Origin: Fistulifera solaris
Lineage: Eukaryota
Reading direction: 5' to 3'
NCBI GenBank assembly: GCA_030295235.1
Contig: AP026130.1
Location: forward strand, 930,001-994,000
DNA: 64,000 bases
Shown here piece by piece: positions 51,818 to 59,968 of this stretch. The notes under the pieces are model-generated. The model ran no database searches, had not been told where the DNA came from, and was given only the letters and a program-made list of their open reading frames with translations. Made by a program: the position numbers and the translations under genes. Position 1 is the stretch's first letter. Each line of letters opens with the position of its first letter.

Positions 51818-52898
51818 TTATGAAAGTGTTCTTTGGCACGCATCTGGAATTTCATCGAATGGACAAGAACCGTACTTGTCGCCGTTTCTTTTCACTACAC
51901 TTCGAACCTCGTGCTCTAAACTGAGAATAGGCCCTGCTTCTGGCTGGTAAGGGTCGACGATATCAAGAATGCGAAACATGCAATCATCTATCGCCTGATC
52001 GAGTGTATATGCCTGGCGTCTGAAGCGTGGGTTAACGTACACCAGCTTCAGTGCATCGGCTTTTCTATAGCATTCGCTGAACTCGGCCAGATAAAGCGAA
52101 ATGTGTGGACCGTAGTTCGAAGGAAAGGTCGGATAGCCCGATGCCGGTTCTGTTTGTTCGTCACGTAAATCAACATGTAAAACAGCAGTCTCCGCCCGGT
52201 TAGGCGCAAAAGTAAGTGTTTGGTAAGGCCCGACGGAAACCACCACCGATTGTGAAGAACAATGGAGAATCGGAGCCCCCATGATCTCTTCATAAAAGCG
52301 CGCAATTCCCTGCATGTTGCAACCCGGAGGCGTATGAATTGTCAAGTCGCGTAGAGCCAAGCCGTCTTTTTCCTTTGATCCTAGCTGCAATCCCCGTGAA
52401 TCCCTTTCCGCGTTGTCACCTTGCACAATTCGAAAAACATTGCCCCATGGATCGTTCACCGTAAGGCATTCGTCGTCCTCAGCTCGCACTGCAAACTTGG
52501 TCTCCAGAAGCGAATGCTTGATTTTCTCATAACGTTGAACAACCGCGGATAAATTGGGATATGATAATGTAATGACGCCGTTCAAAACTTGTGCATCGGG
52601 TTTTCCTTCCGGCAAGTGAAACTGATTTGCACCAATGTTGGCCCATAGTGTTTTTCGACCTTGTATTATATTTTCTTGTTTCCTCGGATCAACGGCACAA
52701 TTCAAAAAAATCAAAGTAAAATGCTTTCAACCAGTCGTGTCGACCTTTCTCGTGATTAATATTGAGATGGTCTAGAATGAGAATGTTGCCCACGGGCTGC
52801 TGTGTTCTGGGTAGATATTTGGATGATTGACTCGCAGCGAAAGCGTCCGTGTTCGATACCTTAGCCGCTAAGAAGACCAGCAACACTAGAGAGACCAT
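51818..52898 (-). CDS. Glyoxalase/VOC-superfamily protein, plastid-targeted
   Basis: Signal ending TDA-FAA; LDHLNIN, LWANIGANQFHLP, DPWGNVF, IARFYEEIMG, HISLY, LEHEVRS; one frameshift in a homopolymer near 52705-52711. Confidence 0.75.
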
Positions 52899-53778
52899 TC
52901 TTTGTTCTATTTAAGCGAGGTGCCGATACTTTGTTGTTATTTTTCAACTATCTTTTTACAATATAATCTGTTGCGATCTGCTTACCTGGTTATTTTCATT
53001 ATTGTCGCAATTTTTTTTATAACAATACAGCCGGGACTGCAATTTCTTTGAGTCAAGGACGGTCGCCTACTGTTTGCATTATTGTACGCAATCATCTTTG
53101 AGACAAGATCTCCCTGTCCAAATCAAGCAAGCCTTTCTAGACGAAAGAAAAATACCTCTTTAGCCAACAAATTACCTGCAAGGCGGCCCGAGCTCTTTTT
53201 GTTCTCTGTTTTGGTTGCTAGCCGAGATTCTCACTCATGACTAAAATCCAGTCCTGGTGAAATCGGACAACACATTGGATCTTAGTAAATGCTAATTGAA
53301 TAACTTTCTGCGTCTACAATCGAAAGTTAGATCGAAGAGGCAACAAACGTCAACGCTTTGCATTTCTAGATAAGGAAGCATATCTCTTTCAGGAGAAAAA
53401 GGTTGATCATGACGTTTGTCGAAACACAAAACGGGTAACTTTACCAAGCTCATGACTGAAAAAGGTAGTCACGGAAAAGTTCTCCTACACTCTATATTAT
53501 AGTAACACATGTCCGTCTGTCCTCCGAGCGTCGCCGTTTGAATTTTGACGATGCAATTATTTTCGCGCCAAAAACCTTTCTCCGCTTTTTTTTTCTCGTG
53601 TTCGCCGATGTGTTGTTGATTGTTGATCCCTTCTTCTTGTCTCTACCAGTATTAGTGTATTTTATTTCAGGGTTGGACCTTGTCGGCTCATCATGGGATT
53701 GCATTGTTTCAGCAGGAAGAGAAACGTAGTTGCTGCGCGTGAACGATTGTAAGATAAGACCGCAACGGAAAAAGTGGA

Positions 53779-56700
53779 ATGAAAGCGGTCTGGAGTTGCA
53801 TTGGTTCTGGCTTTTGGTTCTGGCTCGCAATGATACGAGGCGTCGGCAGTTTTCGAGGCCATTGTACTGCGCTCGCCAGGCCTTTACAAGATTATGCAAG
53901 AGTTACTTCTATACTTGCTCACGCTTCTTCGACATGTAGTTCGAACGACGATGAAGATGAATTGCTGACCATTCAGCAACGCATTGCTCACTTAAACGGA
54001 GGAACTAAAGTTAATTTGAAAAGCCCCAGGCAAGTTTCTCATGCCATTTTCGGCGATAAACGGAGTACCGAAAAGAAAGTGCTGGAACTTGCTGCGAAAG
54101 GGATGATCGCCGGATTGGATACATCGCGGCAGGAACTGGCTCGGCTCGTATTGCGGCATCGGGAGTTGATCAGCACTACTGCTTCGATTGCCAAAGTCGA
54201 CAATTTTCAACGACGGAGCATGTCGACTGCTGCTCAGAATAATGTTTCCGATAGTGATGCTTTTGAAAGCGGGCCGGATACGATCGCTGAAAATTTACCG
54301 TTAGTACCAATTGAACATAAATCTGCCGATCCCCTCGAGCAACAATCTCCGTTCGAATTGGCTGTGCACAACTTGTTTAATAACAAGAAATCAAAAGTAT
54401 CGCATCACTGGCGAGAACCACTCTTACAACTCAGGCGACCTTCTTCTCAGGCGCTCGTGTTGCAGTTGGATTCGGGACAGTGTCCAATGGGGTTTGATCC
54501 TTTAGCACAACCGTTCGATCCTCTGCGGGGGACTACGGATACTTTGGAAGAAGAAGCGACGAGGACTACGACGGCTGGTAAAAGGGCTCGTTCCTGGGGT
54601 TCTGTCGAGAACAGAAAGAGAAATACCCAGATTGCGTGCTGTTAACACGATGTGGTGATTTTTATGAAGCGTTTGGAATTGATGCCATTATGCTCGTCGA
54701 ACATTGCGGATTGAATTCAATGGCTGGCAAAGCAAGAGCTGGATGTCCAATACGAAATGTTCAAGCAACAATAGACGGTCTTACGAGCCAAGGATTCCGT
54801 GTTGCTGTGTATGAGGAAGGGACTGACACGGACGCATCATCTGGTGCTGGAGCCTCAGCGGGTGCAAAGTCGCGGATCAAGCATCGCTTTCTCTCTCAAA
54901 TTGTATCGCCTGCTTCGCCGACGTATCTTTATGACTTGGTGCTGTCTGGAACAGCTGACACCTTGGCTATGGCAGCTCCCTCTCGCCCGTACGTCGGTGT
55001 ACTTTCGCTGGCGTCGGGATACACTCTGGTCGAAGTCTCTACCGAGGAAAGGAGCGTAAGAGTATCAGAACGGCTGACGGCTGAAGCTGTGGCTTGTAGG
55101 ATTGCGGCATACCCTCCGACAGATCCGTTGATGTATATGCCTACTCCCGCTGAATATGCTGCAAAGCGATCAGGATACTCGCTTCCATTTCTACCAACCC
55201 GGCGACATGGCGAATTCGACTCAGGCTCGCGGCTGCGCATGCAAATCATTCCACCATTGCTATATCCTGAAGCTCGGCCTGGCGTTACCGACGTTGAGCG
55301 TGCCAAGGATATCGTTTTAACAACCCTTCTCCGTGCGACTGGAAGCCGAGATGACAGTGACAACCAGCAAGATAATCTTGCAATATCTGATTACACCCTT
55401 TTCGAGTCGTCGGATACTCGTGAATTGGAAGTTACGTACACGAATCCGTTGTACGTAGAAACTGCAACTCAGTTGGGATTGATGAATGACCCTACGATGC
55501 CATCCCTGATTGCCTCTCTTTTGCCGCACTCGGCTCCTGCTTCAACGCGCCGTTTTCTTCGTCGTCTACTACTGAACCCTCCGCCTCCGACGGTTTCTGA
55601 CTCATTGCGGAATTTGGTTCGTTTCTTAAAACAAGATTTTCGTAACTCTCTCCCTCCACTTGCAGTGTAAGCAAACTCTTTGTTTTGATGATAAGTCCTA
55701 TACATTGTCTTACATGTGTGTGTCTTGCGCTTTTCAGGCCTCCATTAGGAAAGATGTTGTCGCTTTTGAGGGCTGGACAAGCGAGTGCGCAAGTTTTGCT
55801 GAACTGCTAAATGTTTTGCATGGAACAGTTACTGCGCTTGACACCTTTGAACGAGAGCCCCAGGCCTTAGATTCGCTTCTTATGCTGATTCAGTATGAAA
55901 GTGGTTTAGCAGCTGATGCGTCGTCGTTACGTAAACGCTGCGCCGATGCTATTGAATCCATAGAGAATGTATTAAGCCCGCTTCATCATGCGAGGTCATC
56001 CTCGTCCGCTATGACGGAAAAAGCTGATATGTTCAGCGAGTCCTGGGATGTAATTCCTCAATCTTTCTTCGAAAGAAATGAAGCTTCTTGGCGAGGTCGA
56101 GTGCACGAAGAGGCCGTTTCAGACGCGTATCACGCTGTCGGTGAATGCGCGAAAAAGCTGGCCGAAGTGGTTGCCGAAGATTTCTGGGGTTCAAGTATTC
56201 AAAACCTTAGTAAATCGGAGAAAATTCGCAATCCTGTTGTGCAAGATATCTTCAACAATCTCATCGCTCTTAAGGAAATTCCGAAATTTTGTTCTGGCAG
56301 CGACAAAAGCAGGTATTTTCATCCAAGAGATCGAAACGGAAAACTATTGAAGACTCGCTATACTACTGAGGCTGTGCAATTGGCCCTGGCTGACTATATC
56401 GCTGCTTGTGACGAGGCCTGTAGCGAGGTTGCATCTGTTCTCGTGCAACTGAGTAGAACTCTCCATGATGGAGGTCATCTTCCTGCAATTGTTCAAGCAT
56501 CCCACGCCAATCTCGTTCTTTCGTGTGCATACTTTCACGCATGTCAGGCCAACAGGTTGGGGTGGAACGTTGCCGAAACATTTGAACCCACTCGCGAGAA
56601 AAACTCCGCTCTTTCGTTGAAGGGTGTGTGGCCATACTGGATAAACAAATCAAATGCAGTTGCCAACTCTTTCGATTTATCAGGTATCTACTTATTAACT

Positions 56701-57699
56701 GCACCAAACATGAGCGGTAAAAGTACGCTGATGCGATCGACCGCTGCCGTTGCGCTCCTAACAGCCTGTGGTCTTTGTGCGCCGGTCGAATGTGGATCGG
56801 AGATACGGCGGTTCGACAACATTTTTGTGCGTGGAGCATCTTCTGATATTCCTACTGAACAAAAATCTGCGTTTGGAGCTGAAATGGGCGACATCGCAGC
56901 CATGCTTCGTTGTTGTGGCCCTAAGTCCCTCGTTTTTGTCGACGAGCTTGGGCGGGGGACATCTCCCCGAGAGGGAACTCAACTTGCTGGAGCTATAGTT
57001 GAATCGATGGCAAACGCAGGTATAAGTGGAATATTTGCAACACATTTGCATGATATCCTCCAGTTGCCTTTAAGTTGTTGGAATATTGTGGCCCTCAAAC
57101 GTATGGCCGTCGATGAAAGACAATCATCCTCTGCTAGATGGAAATTTAAATTGGAAGATGGCGTCTGCACAAATTCAATGGCACTTGAGACTGCTGCACA
57201 CTTCGGTTTGCCATCATCCATCATTCAGCGGGCTCAAGAGCTCTCTAACTTCGACCTTCGTTCTGATAATACCGGGTCGACTGAAGTTTACAATATCGAT
57301 CAAAAATCTGTTTCAACGCTACAGGATATTGTGCCCGTTGCAGAGAGTATAACTCAGCAATCGAGCATTATAATTCCTCCGGAATATCATCCGCCTGCGT
57401 TTTTGGATGGGAGGTCTATTGTTTATATATTGGAGCTCGATTCGACCCCTCGAAAGTATTACGTCGGCGAAACAGATGATGTTAGATCAAGATTATTGCA
57501 GCATCGCAGAAAAGGGGGAATGTGGTCTAATATGACCACTATCGTCGTGCCAGCTCCAGGGGGCAAATCTCAGGCACGTGCCTGGGAGAGTAGTCTCATC
57601 CAGTCATTGGCGAGCAAAGGATTGTTTCTAGAGAGTGTTAGCGACGGAAGGTCCATCAGATCTAGTATCACTTATGGAAGCTACTTAGAACCAAGTTAA
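53779..57699 (+). CDS. MSH1: MSH1 (organellar MutS homolog with C-terminal GIY-YIG endonuclease)
   Basis: Domain I LLTRCGDFYEAFGIDAIMLVEHCGLN..RAGCP; ATPase TAPNMSGKST, VDELGRGTS, FATHLH; GIY-YIG VYILEL...YYVGETDDVRSRLLQHR. Intron 55667-55737; frameshifts near 54580 and 55795. Confidence 0.93.
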
Positions 57700-57736: not shown

Positions 57737-59968
57737 CTATTTTTGTGCCTGAAGACGCCGGCGCTGATGACTGAGCAGTTGCTTGAGCATGCCACGCATA
57801 TCCTTGCGGTACGTGTCTCTGGAACCAGCAGGAACACTCATGCGGTAACGCAACTCATCAGAAGTCAGACACTCCCCAAGCTCCAAGAGCGCACCAAGAA
57901 CCGTCGATATGTGATTTGGGGCTACCTTGTCCGACCGCATGGTCAAATAATACCACTCTCCAGTCTCAGGGTCAAAGCCCACCTCGGCAATACGATCACC
58001 CGACTCGAACCGGTCGGCTTCAAGACGCATACGTTCACTCAACGGCAATAGAATATGCCTTGTCATATCGACCCTTGTCTGCTCTTCTCCTAAACAGCCC
58101 ACGCGCAACGTATCGTCATCGTCATTGTGTAGCAGTGGAAGCAACTCAACATCAATGGTCACAGTGTCCAGATATTTCCATTTCAAAGATGAACATCCGT
58201 TCCGCATACGTACGGCCGGTTGGGCTGGAAGATTATACCATCTGTCAGATGAAAATGTAAATCGCCTTTATGGTAGCAACGCATACCCCGTTCCTCGACC
58301 ACATTAGATAGTAATTCATCCACTTCCGTTCGCTTGACAAAATTTTTTCGCACAAGAGGTAGTGGGATAGCAGGATCCGCAACGTACCTGGGATCGAACA
58401 TATCCCGATTCGCCGTTGGTGTTCGAAATGATGCCTTTCGTAAGTGATCAAGTCGGCGATCAAACGGCAGTTGCAAGACAGGTTCTGTTGTGGATATCGA
58501 CATGACGTCAAACACAATAAAAATGGGCCGCGGTTTACGACCTCGCCGATTCATCACGACCTCTCCATCAAACACAGTTCCGGGCTTGATAAGGTCAATG
58601 ATGTGACCGAAAGGATCTTGGTCAGCTTTCGTGGGTATCGGTTGTTTTGCTTTCATGGCCCGATCAACAAGCACCGCAGTTTTCCCCGTAAACACTAGAA
58701 AGTGACGAACCCCGTCAGTCTTTTCACTTATATAGTAGGCATCATTGGCACCTCTTTGTATTTCATCAATGTTGTGGCGAGAAAAGTTCACCGGCATACA
58801 TCCAGGAAACTTGATATTCGAAAGAGCAGCCGATGGCGTATCGTTGGGACGCTCAATGGGTGATTCAAACCTACTGGTGCCACGAGCATCCATGAACTTT
58901 TTGAGCGCCCCACATTGTGCCAACGCCAACTGTACCGCGTGTTTATCCGGGTGATCGCGCAACATTTCTTCCACATTCAATGCATCTACTAAGGGATTGA
59001 TCTGACTCATGATCCACCACAACTGCTGTGACAATTGATGAGTCATTTTCTTTGAATTTTCTTCGTTTTCTTCATTAATAAGCTGCAGCAAAACTTTCTC
59101 TTGCAATTCGACTTCAATTTCAAAATCTACTTCCGTCGTTGTTGGTGTCGAGCGAGAAGTTGTGGTCACTTCTGTGACATCAATCTGCCACGCAATGGAT
59201 CTATCACGACGAGTGTAAGACCGTCGTCGCTTGATTCGCATCACACTCCAACCCGGCGGTGGATCATTCGGGACCGCAGGATCTACAATGGTTTCGGAAG
59301 CCAACGCAATGCGCAAATCATAATTTGCAGCGGGTATCGTCAAGTCCATCGTGACGAGCTTCTCCTTCGATTCCATTATCCCAACTAATGGCTTGTGCGA
59401 CGACCCATGCAATCCAGGATAGCAAACACGCCGGTCATTTGGATACCCCGAATACACTGTTTCTACATATTCTTTTTCTTCCAAATCCTGTTTGAGATCC
59501 CCTCGTTCCGCTGTTACCCCCCAAAGCGTAGGCCAAGGGCGACAATTCACTCAGACCCGACGCCGTCCATTTCGAAAAGTGTGTACGACTGACTCCCGAA
59601 ACCATTTGACAGCGGGGATTTTGATGACTGCATTCAAAGGCCTTGACCAAATTCCCATTGACGTGCTTGGCTCCCGTCGATGTGAGCCCGCCGGGGCGGA
59701 ACGGAATGCGGCACTTTGAGGATACCGAGACGCGCTTCGACTTCGCAGAATGGCTTGGAAATGGGAATTGTCTGTGCGGGGTTGTATTTTCTCGCTGCAT
59801 TGCGAACTTGTGTCAAGAATATTTGCAGTGATTGTTCGGGATGTACAGGAGTCGAGAGATAAATGTTTTTGGGTGCATTGCCGTGCTGTGGTGCCGTCGA
59901 TGTTTCCTCGTCGAGTTTGGCCCTTTTGTTATGAAAGCGTTGATATCGAAATTGGGACGTTTACTCAT
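57737..59968 (-). CDS. Bifunctional mRNA capping enzyme: CYTH/TTM RNA triphosphatase fused to guanylyltransferase
   Basis: TTM motifs EVEARLG, DLRIALASE, RIKRRRSY, WQIDVTEV, FEIEVEL; GTase motifs SEKTDG, FDGE, FIVFDV, DGIIF, LKWK, and an OB fold MRSDKVAPN. Several 1-nt frameshifts. Confidence 0.88.

Follow-up and report, generated by a model that had tools for sequence, protein, structure and literature searches.

A DNA polymerase thumb module behind the presequence of diatom MSH1

MSH1 is reported to hold the rates of point mutation and rearrangement in plant organelles very low. In the available sections of the published accounts the family is defined by a C-terminal GIY-YIG domain on a MutS protein, and its members come from plants, stramenopiles, alveolates, haptophytes, cryptomonads, a few bacteria and giant viruses. 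A second described system that bears on the gene analyzed here is the thumb subdomain of family-A DNA polymerases, which in the Klenow fragment comprises approximately residues 554–658. According to the available sections of the report on Mycobacterium smegmatis Pol1 bound to DNA, the thumb reaches across the minor groove. On the template strand two phosphates are contacted by N558, S561 and Q564, and on the primer strand T581, T583, T586, T587 and R611 make the phosphate contacts (PMC7102940). Here we describe an MSH1 gene of the diatom Fistulifera solaris that combines elements of both systems. It lies in a stretch of 64,000 nucleotides (assembly GCA_030295235.1, contig AP026130.1, positions 930,001 to 994,000 of the forward strand), hereafter called the window, and all coordinates below are counted from the first letter of the window. 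Residues 55–151 of the encoded protein are truly homologous to the thumb of family-A DNA polymerases and form an autonomous module of about 95 residues between the presequence and the MutS domains.

Thumb homology of the N-terminal module

A preliminary description of the window, made from the sequence alone, had proposed that the segment at 53959–54170 resembles the thumb of DNA polymerase I. This segment corresponds to residues 61–130 and thus lies inside the module. Translation of the window from 53779 to 54582 on the forward strand returned the quoted residues at the place given for them. When the N-terminal 268 residues were compared with Pfam, DNA_pol_A (PF00476) was the only family found, with residues 59–135 matching profile positions 12–90 of 381 at an E-value of 2.5e-4. 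The score of 20.5 bits is below the curated cut-off of 34.3 bits, which is reached or passed by orthologue and exonuclease-type modules (38.6 bits for P0009 and 42.5 bits for P0096).

Profile searches were then compared with structures in the PDB. A single-sequence phmmer search of the PDB gave nothing significant, with Pol I at an E-value of about 1.3 and an unrelated oxygenase as the top row (E-value 0.14). With a profile of six MSH1 modules, the 31 best PDB matches were all family-A polymerases, 30 of them of the Bst type (E-values 5e-5 to 1.3e-4) and one DpoZ (0.0039). A larger profile, made from 48 modules and leaving out all true polymerases, matched Bst Pol I over the whole thumb at an E-value of 4.7e-9, Klenow at 1.8e-4 and Taq at approximately 3e-4; 55 of its 56 matches at E ≤ 1 were Pol I entries. 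Against 1.84 billion representative proteins the six-module profile resulted in 192 matches at E ≤ 1e-3. The window protein was the top match (E-value 2.0e-31), and three complete polymerases were recovered as well (E-values 3.5e-7 to 3.1e-5). The nearest feature clusters of the Protein Atlas were DNA_pol_A fragments with scores of 0.91–0.92, which we take as a lead only.

The module alone was modeled with AlphaFold2 on the 48-row alignment, with a predicted local distance difference test score (pLDDT) of 90.3 and a predicted template modeling score (pTM) of 0.78. The model contains four helices (model residues 3–20, 31–39, 47–54 and 63–95) that match helices H, H1, H2 and I of the thumb. Structural comparison by Foldseek, a check suggested in the preliminary description, succeeded in part: Bst thumbs were ranked first, with a probability of up to 0.96 and a root-mean-square deviation of 1.9–3.1 Å, while no match reached E ≤ 0.001, which is usual for a small helical query and leaves the ranking informative. 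With VIA-align, the nine top matches were all PolA thumbs.

The diatom modules share a pattern consisting of Asn-x2-Ser-Pro-Lys-Gln-Val-Ser, Phe-Gly, Ser-Thr and Leu...Ala-x-Leu-x-Leu-x2-Arg together with a shortened tip, and the window protein fits this pattern. The conserved residues are N79, S82, P83, Q85, V86, S87, F91, G92, S96, L102, A121, L123, L125 and R128, and conservation within the module peaks at residues 81–90 and 121–130. Of the elements that characterize a family-A polymerase, the thumb with its helices H, H1, H2 and I is present, and motifs A and C of the palm and motif B of the fingers are missing: Pfam coverage stops at position 90 of the 381 in the profile, and patterns for motifs A, B and C were not found in the proteins P0001 and P0003. 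The origin of the module is thus a family-A polymerase, from whose thumb subdomain it is derived, and its tip has been shortened. Pfam, the PDB profile matches, the predicted fold and the conservation all bear out the likeness to the PolA thumb that had first been noticed from the sequence alone.

Occurrence in diatom MSH1 and on a second host

To assess how common the module is, we started from a full-length diatom MSH1 orthologue and surveyed the best 120 of its 268 MSH1 relatives. The module was found in 90 of these proteins. When only those with 180 or more residues ahead of the GDFYE motif of MutS domain I are counted, 74 of 76 have it; the 30 proteins lacking it are mostly N-terminally truncated models. 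Named carriers include pennate as well as centric genera, i.e. Mayamaea, Seminavis, Cylindrotheca, Nitzschia, Epithemia, Thalassiothrix, Skeletonema, Thalassiosira, Discostella and Detonula. In the diatom proteins P0228 and P0168, which are derived from transcriptomes, the module and MutS occur together. Hence both the conservation of the segment in other diatom MSH1 proteins and its joining to MSH1 in other diatoms, as the preliminary description had anticipated, were observed. All named sources of module proteins in this survey are diatoms, save one labeled Alexandrium. This protein, P0289, is a module-bearing MSH1 with 46% identity to the Mayamaea protein and the source label Alexandrium tamarense, a dinoflagellate; it could be either a diatom contamination of the data set or a genuine non-diatom case.

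A precomputed PF00476 label was present on 15 of the 120 MSH1 relatives, and therefore annotation pipelines had already flagged the module. In the available parts of the literature searched we found no description of a thumb module on MSH1, in agreement with the earlier suggestion that the architecture is possibly undescribed. Among centric diatoms, the Thalassiosirales-type MSH1 proteins P0125, P0287, P0294, P0308, P0124 and P0135 have a long, variable insertion at the thumb tip after Phe/Tyr-Gly, with the motif Leu-Leu-Tyr-Gly, and therefore the module profile matches only the first half of their modules.

The motif pattern of the module was also compared with viral contigs, where 46 pattern matches contained three confirmed relatives and no viral MSH1 with a thumb. 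All three relatives are polymerase genes, two of them full-length and one cut at the contig end. On two phage contigs, L002 (1759–4104) and L003 (1537–4296), family-A polymerases are fused to an N-terminal domain of the uracil-DNA-glycosylase superfamily, and their thumbs contain the Gln-Val-Ser variant, as in the diatom modules.

Host classes were assigned by local profiles to the best 150 of the 192 profile matches. This resulted in 53 MSH1-type proteins, 64 5′-3′ exonucleases, three complete polymerases and 30 unclassified matches, the latter consisting of 29 pieces that end at most 136 residues past the module and one low-complexity false match. Thus, the module is not unique to MSH1 and also marks another repair enzyme of diatoms. 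Proteins of the exonuclease family have it directly before PF02739 and PF01367 (flap/5′-3′ exonuclease), for example in P0044, P0055, P0101, P0109, P0344 and P0370. These proteins look eukaryotic, with presequences and low-complexity N-termini, often comprising 200–500 residues before the module. The named sources are all diatoms: Nitzschia sp. Nitz4 (P0109), Fragilaria crotonensis (P0370, annotated as '5'-3' exonuclease') and Chaetoceros neogracilis (P0344). Both types of module protein are found in Nitzschia sp. Nitz4. The shortened tip, which lacks some 11 residues of the Pol I loop, and the Gln-Val-Ser motif are common to the MSH1 and exonuclease modules. Some sources label the thumb-exonuclease proteins 'DNA polymerase-1'; a diatom protein with a partial DNA_pol_A match should not be taken for a polymerase.

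A tree was calculated from 113 modules (64 exonuclease, 46 MSH1 and three polymerase), omitting the 30 unclassified matches and seven MSH1 proteins with incomplete profile coverage. The modules group by host class with two changes, the lowest number possible, and the Shimodaira-Hasegawa-like approximate likelihood ratio test (SH-aLRT) gave 0 for the exonuclease split. As branch support is weak, the tree does not say which host gained the module first. P0105, a bacterial-looking polymerase of small size whose tip is just as short, was weighed as a possible donor type, and no evidence for a donor role was found.

Gene structure, assembly and targeting

The features of the MSH1 gene and the evidence for each of them are as follows.

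53779..53940, forward strand: start codon and presequence, residues 1–54; first ATG past the upstream stop.
53941..54231, forward strand: mini-thumb module, residues 55–151; Pfam, PDB profile matches, AlphaFold and VIA-align.
54226..54327, forward strand: tether, residues 150–183, predicted to be disordered, variable; pLDDT below 50 and lowest conservation.
54331..54528, forward strand: conserved helical segment before domain I, residues 185–250; pLDDT of about 95 and invariant columns.
54580..54583, forward strand: A-run, one base short in the window, with an apparent shift from frame 1 to frame 3; contigs of four runs.
54606..54914, forward strand: MutS domain I, mismatch-binding, with GDFYE; Pfam PF01624, E-value 1.1e-13.
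55667..55737, forward strand: putative intron of 71 nt, GTAAGC...CAG, phase 2; restores the reading of the orthologues.
55794..55797, forward strand: T-run, one base short in the window, second homopolymer deletion in the MSH1 gene; contigs of runs X1 and X2.
56692..57243, forward strand: MutS domain V, ATPase, with Walker A; Pfam PF00488, E-value 5.2e-39, 134.6 bits.
57418..57525, forward strand: region of the C-terminal GIY-YIG nuclease motif; Pfam PF01541, E-value 0.0029.

The stop codon is at 57697–57699, and the corrected protein is about 1283 residues long. Because it matches MutS domain I, MutS domain V and, weakly, GIY-YIG, the gene product is a diatom MSH1 of the plant type, a nuclear-encoded, probably organellar protein with MutS domains I to V and a C-terminal GIY-YIG domain. 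The GIY-YIG match of the window protein (PF01541, 18.3 bits) is below the cut-off of 22.6 bits, which is passed by orthologues with 37–56% identity (27.6 bits for P0033, 27.2 for P0040 and 25.4 for P0045). Based on these matches, the C-terminal domain is assigned to the GIY-YIG family, with a predicted nuclease activity. The assignment as MutS plus GIY-YIG given in the preliminary description thus stands. GDFYE corresponds to residues 293–297, of which F295, Y296 and E297 are invariant in 45 orthologues.

The layout of the N-terminus was analyzed with a model of the 630-residue protein P0003, which is 100% identical to the N-terminal 268 residues of the window protein and reads through the site at 54580, as do the orthologues. 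The pLDDT is below 50 for residues 1–4 and 6–53, about 97 for the module, below 50 for residues 150–183 and about 95 from residue 190 onwards. The module is therefore folded also in the model of the read-through protein that had been proposed as a check. The presequence (residues 1–54) shows low conservation among orthologues, and the tether has about 20 inserted residues per orthologue. In the segment between tether and domain I, W211, Q229, L230 and C235 are invariant, and the pLDDT is about 95 for residues 190–250. MutS domain I, starting at approximately residue 265, is conserved with a pLDDT of about 95. The Pfam layout agrees with the position first assigned to the thumb segment, between presequence and MutS domain I.

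The preliminary description had noted a break of the reading frame at 54580. The break is present in the window; it is an assembly error caused by a homopolymer deletion, since contigs from all four public runs that were compared with the window over 53700–55900 (X1–X4) have one more base there. The additional base in the A-run at 54580–54583 was found at depths of 11.1 of 11.1 in X2, 17.9 of 17.9 in X3 and 24.5 of 24.5 in X4. In X1 it was found at 10.5 of 15.6, alongside a second allele with a different one-base insertion. A biological explanation of this indel is unnecessary. Once the missing A is restored, the module and MutS domain I are in one continuous exon. An additional T behind position 55793 is present in the contigs of X1 (11.1 of 11.1) and X2 (102.5 of 102.5). 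As two homopolymer deletions were thus found in a single gene, further homopolymer errors are likely in this assembly, and other frameshifts in the window should be read accordingly.

With the missing T at 55794–55797 restored, the 71-nt stretch is the only splice that gives the conserved reading of the orthologues, which suggests an intron at 55667–55737. One contig of X2 passes unspliced through the putative intron and has a linker-like loose end, and therefore the runs look like DNA; no splice joints were found in the contigs of the four runs. Beside the window sequence, a second allele or close relative with about 8–9% DNA difference was detected over 53836–55621 in X2–X4 and partly in X1. 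Within the module, seven of the ten listed differences are synonymous, and two of the three replacements (R84K and H127Y) are toward the family consensus; 84 further differences lie across the compared stretch beyond this list. In MutS domain I, 19 of 21 listed differences are synonymous. We count the mostly synonymous differences in the module in its favor, as a sign of selection.

The N-terminus of the window protein consists of a tryptophan-rich hydrophobic stretch followed by Gly-Ser|Phe, and it may direct the protein to the plastid, as suggested earlier. In a crude hydrophobicity test it scored 1.7 against a chosen cut-off of 2.0. A similarly crude scan for hydrophobicity and motifs in 82 orthologue N-termini classified 48 as signal-peptide-like, 20 of these with small-x-small-[FWYL]. 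In a cluster from Skeletonema menzelii, the longer MSH1 protein P0167 adds a signal peptide and an Ala-Ala-Ala|Phe site before the start methionine of the shorter, mitochondrial-looking P0125, which hints at dual targeting to plastid and mitochondrion by alternative starts. P0307 on the one hand and P0309 and P0311 on the other are likewise longer and shorter N-terminal forms of MSH1.

Two neighboring open reading frames were inspected. The one at 58183–59550 on the reverse strand encodes an mRNA capping enzyme (PF01331 catalytic domain, E-value 3.5e-20; mRNA triphosphatase match, E-value 1.7e-10) and is convergent with the 3′ end of MSH1. Upstream of MSH1, a frame of 302 residues at 51818–52726 on the reverse strand matched no Pfam family at E ≤ 0.001.

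Proposed function and comparison with known systems

We lean towards the view that the module, on a flexible tether, grips duplex DNA independently of its sequence. It would lie across the minor groove of the duplex and hold the backbones of both strands, as the thumb of a polymerase does, with N79, S82 and Q85 holding one strand, and S96-T97 and R128 the other. Binding of duplex DNA or DNA ends is suggested because the modules have kept residues through which M. smegmatis Pol1 touches the phosphates of DNA. Asn-x2-Ser-x2-Gln (N79, S82 and Q85 in the window) is invariant in all 48 modules; 44 of them have the Arg of helix I (R128) and 37 have the Ser of Ser-Thr (S96). A weak PDB match to the POL chain of Pol1 places the triad on residues 558, 561 and 564, provided that the chain starts at residue 304. 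Of the 46 MSH1 modules, 37 carry a positive net charge, as do 53 of the 64 exonuclease modules; the medians are +2 and +3, respectively. A disordered tether of about 35 residues or longer would join the module to the MutS core, so that the module would be a sequence-independent anchor raising the residence of MSH1 on organellar DNA. It may also direct MSH1 to duplex beside primer ends and nicks. In Pol I the polymerase body holds the upstream duplex for the 5′ nuclease, and on the exonuclease the module might take over this role by gripping the upstream duplex.

Several points weigh against such a grip. The charge is mildly positive at best (MSH1 median +2), and nine of the 46 MSH1 modules are neutral or negative. 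The invariant residues double as helix caps and core positions, and the needs of folding could by themselves account for their conservation. Motif spacing, and not a residue-by-residue alignment, is the basis for pairing R128 with R611 and S96-T97 with T586/T587. With a pTM of 0.56, the docking of the module on the MutS core is unreadable in the model of the 630-residue protein. In addition, a polymerase thumb binds DNA together with palm and fingers. The tip hairpin, which in the available sections on Pol1 supplies T581, K582 and T583 and thereby part of the primer-strand contacts, is deleted in the diatom module, and the thumb tip is disordered in the Pol1 apoenzyme (PMC7102940). As the thumb acts together with palm and fingers and its tip is disordered in the apoenzyme, an isolated thumb may bind only weakly.

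As the main alternative, the module could be a protein-protein adaptor, in which the base of the hairpin, freed from the palm, binds a partner shared by both hosts; we regard this as rather doubtful. The partner could be the organellar replicative polymerase, a replisome or nucleoid protein, or the sister module, which would couple MSH1 to the exonuclease. An adaptor would fit the occurrence of a closely similar module on exactly two hosts, MutS and the flap/5′-3′ exonuclease (53 and 64 among the best 150 of 192 matches), both of which are found in Nitzschia sp. Nitz4, and the palm-packing surfaces are exposed in a free thumb. The sliding clamp of nuclear and bacterial systems, which recruits MutS homologues as well as flap nucleases, would be a parallel. 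However, the most conserved positions of the module are those that face DNA in polymerases and not those at the hairpin base. We consider it very unlikely that the module is a folded relic kept for some other reason, for instance as a lid that autoinhibits domain I or as a spacer that aids import or maturation once the presequence has been cleaved. The location directly behind the presequence in both host families would be in line with a relic, as would green-plant MSH1, which the available parts of published domain descriptions report without such a module. On the other hand, the conserved positions match those of polymerase thumbs over about 95 residues and are kept in both host families, and in the exonuclease family the module is often 200–500 residues away from the N-terminus and thus far from the cleavage site. 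That the module is not real, with the likeness arising by chance or a polymerase remnant having been joined to MSH1 through faulty annotation or assembly, is hardly credible. The window score below the Pfam cut-off, the phmmer search of the PDB without significant matches and the frame break between module and domain I would agree with an artefact, but profile E-values are as low as 4.7e-9, the fold match is specific to PolA thumbs, and the frame break is a base missing from the window that all four runs' contigs contain. Moreover, the fusion recurs in 74 of the 76 surveyed MSH1 proteins with a sufficient N-terminus, transcriptome-derived ones included.

In a more far-reaching scenario, quite unlikely in our estimation, the mini-thumb would be a transferable tag that addresses its carriers to duplex next to nascent 3′ ends and nicks, at organelle replisomes that lack a sliding clamp. 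Such a tag would couple mismatch sensing by MSH1 to excision by the 5′-3′ flap exonuclease on newly made organellar DNA, as a lineage-specific route of mismatch repair. If true, a polymerase subdomain would do in diatom organelles what clamp-binding motifs do elsewhere.

The module offers a concrete, mutable handle on how MSH1 locates its substrates when the customary clamp and MutL partners are absent, and does so in a major group of primary producers. As an example of protein evolution it is unusual as well, since a subdomain of an enzyme, rather than a whole domain, was cut free and reused on two unrelated hosts. What appears to be new here is an MSH1 with an exapted polymerase subdomain, together with the same module on a second, probably organellar, repair enzyme of diatoms.

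Compared with the thumbs of Klenow, Bst, Taq, M. smegmatis Pol1, T7 and Pol nu, the diatom module stands alone, without palm, fingers or exonuclease, and the tip loop or hairpin of about 11 residues is absent. Where Bst Pol I has Gln-Leu-Gly, the diatom modules have Gln-Val-Ser, and their median net charge is +2 to +3 as opposed to −1 in polymerases, the latter value being based on three proteins only. The diatom thumb-exonuclease proteins share the mini-thumb and presequence-like N-termini with diatom MSH1; they continue with PF02739 and PF01367 instead of MutS, and their modules score higher against Pfam DNA_pol_A than those of MSH1.

To our knowledge, the plant MSH1 sequence is without a thumb module. 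With plant-type MSH1 (CHM/MSH1 of Arabidopsis and its relatives) the diatom protein has in common domain I with GDFYE, the ATPase of domain V, the C-terminal GIY-YIG domain and the helical segment before domain I. It differs by the polymerase-thumb module behind the presequence, which is not mentioned in the available parts of published MSH1 domain descriptions.

The N-terminal region of eukaryotic MSH6 is flexibly tethered, binds duplex DNA non-specifically and contains a recruitment motif. We use it as a working analogy only: it is tethered like the diatom module, but it is nuclear and not organellar, and its fold and origin are unrelated. The DPD1-MutS1 fusions of green plants likewise represent an organellar MutS protein that has gained a polymerase-associated accessory domain at its N-terminus. 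According to the available sections of their description, they belong to another subfamily, the cyanobacterial-type MutS1, and their accessory domain is a DEDDh 3′-5′ exonuclease, i.e. an enzyme and not a DNA-holding subdomain (Plant Cell 2024, PMC12292046).

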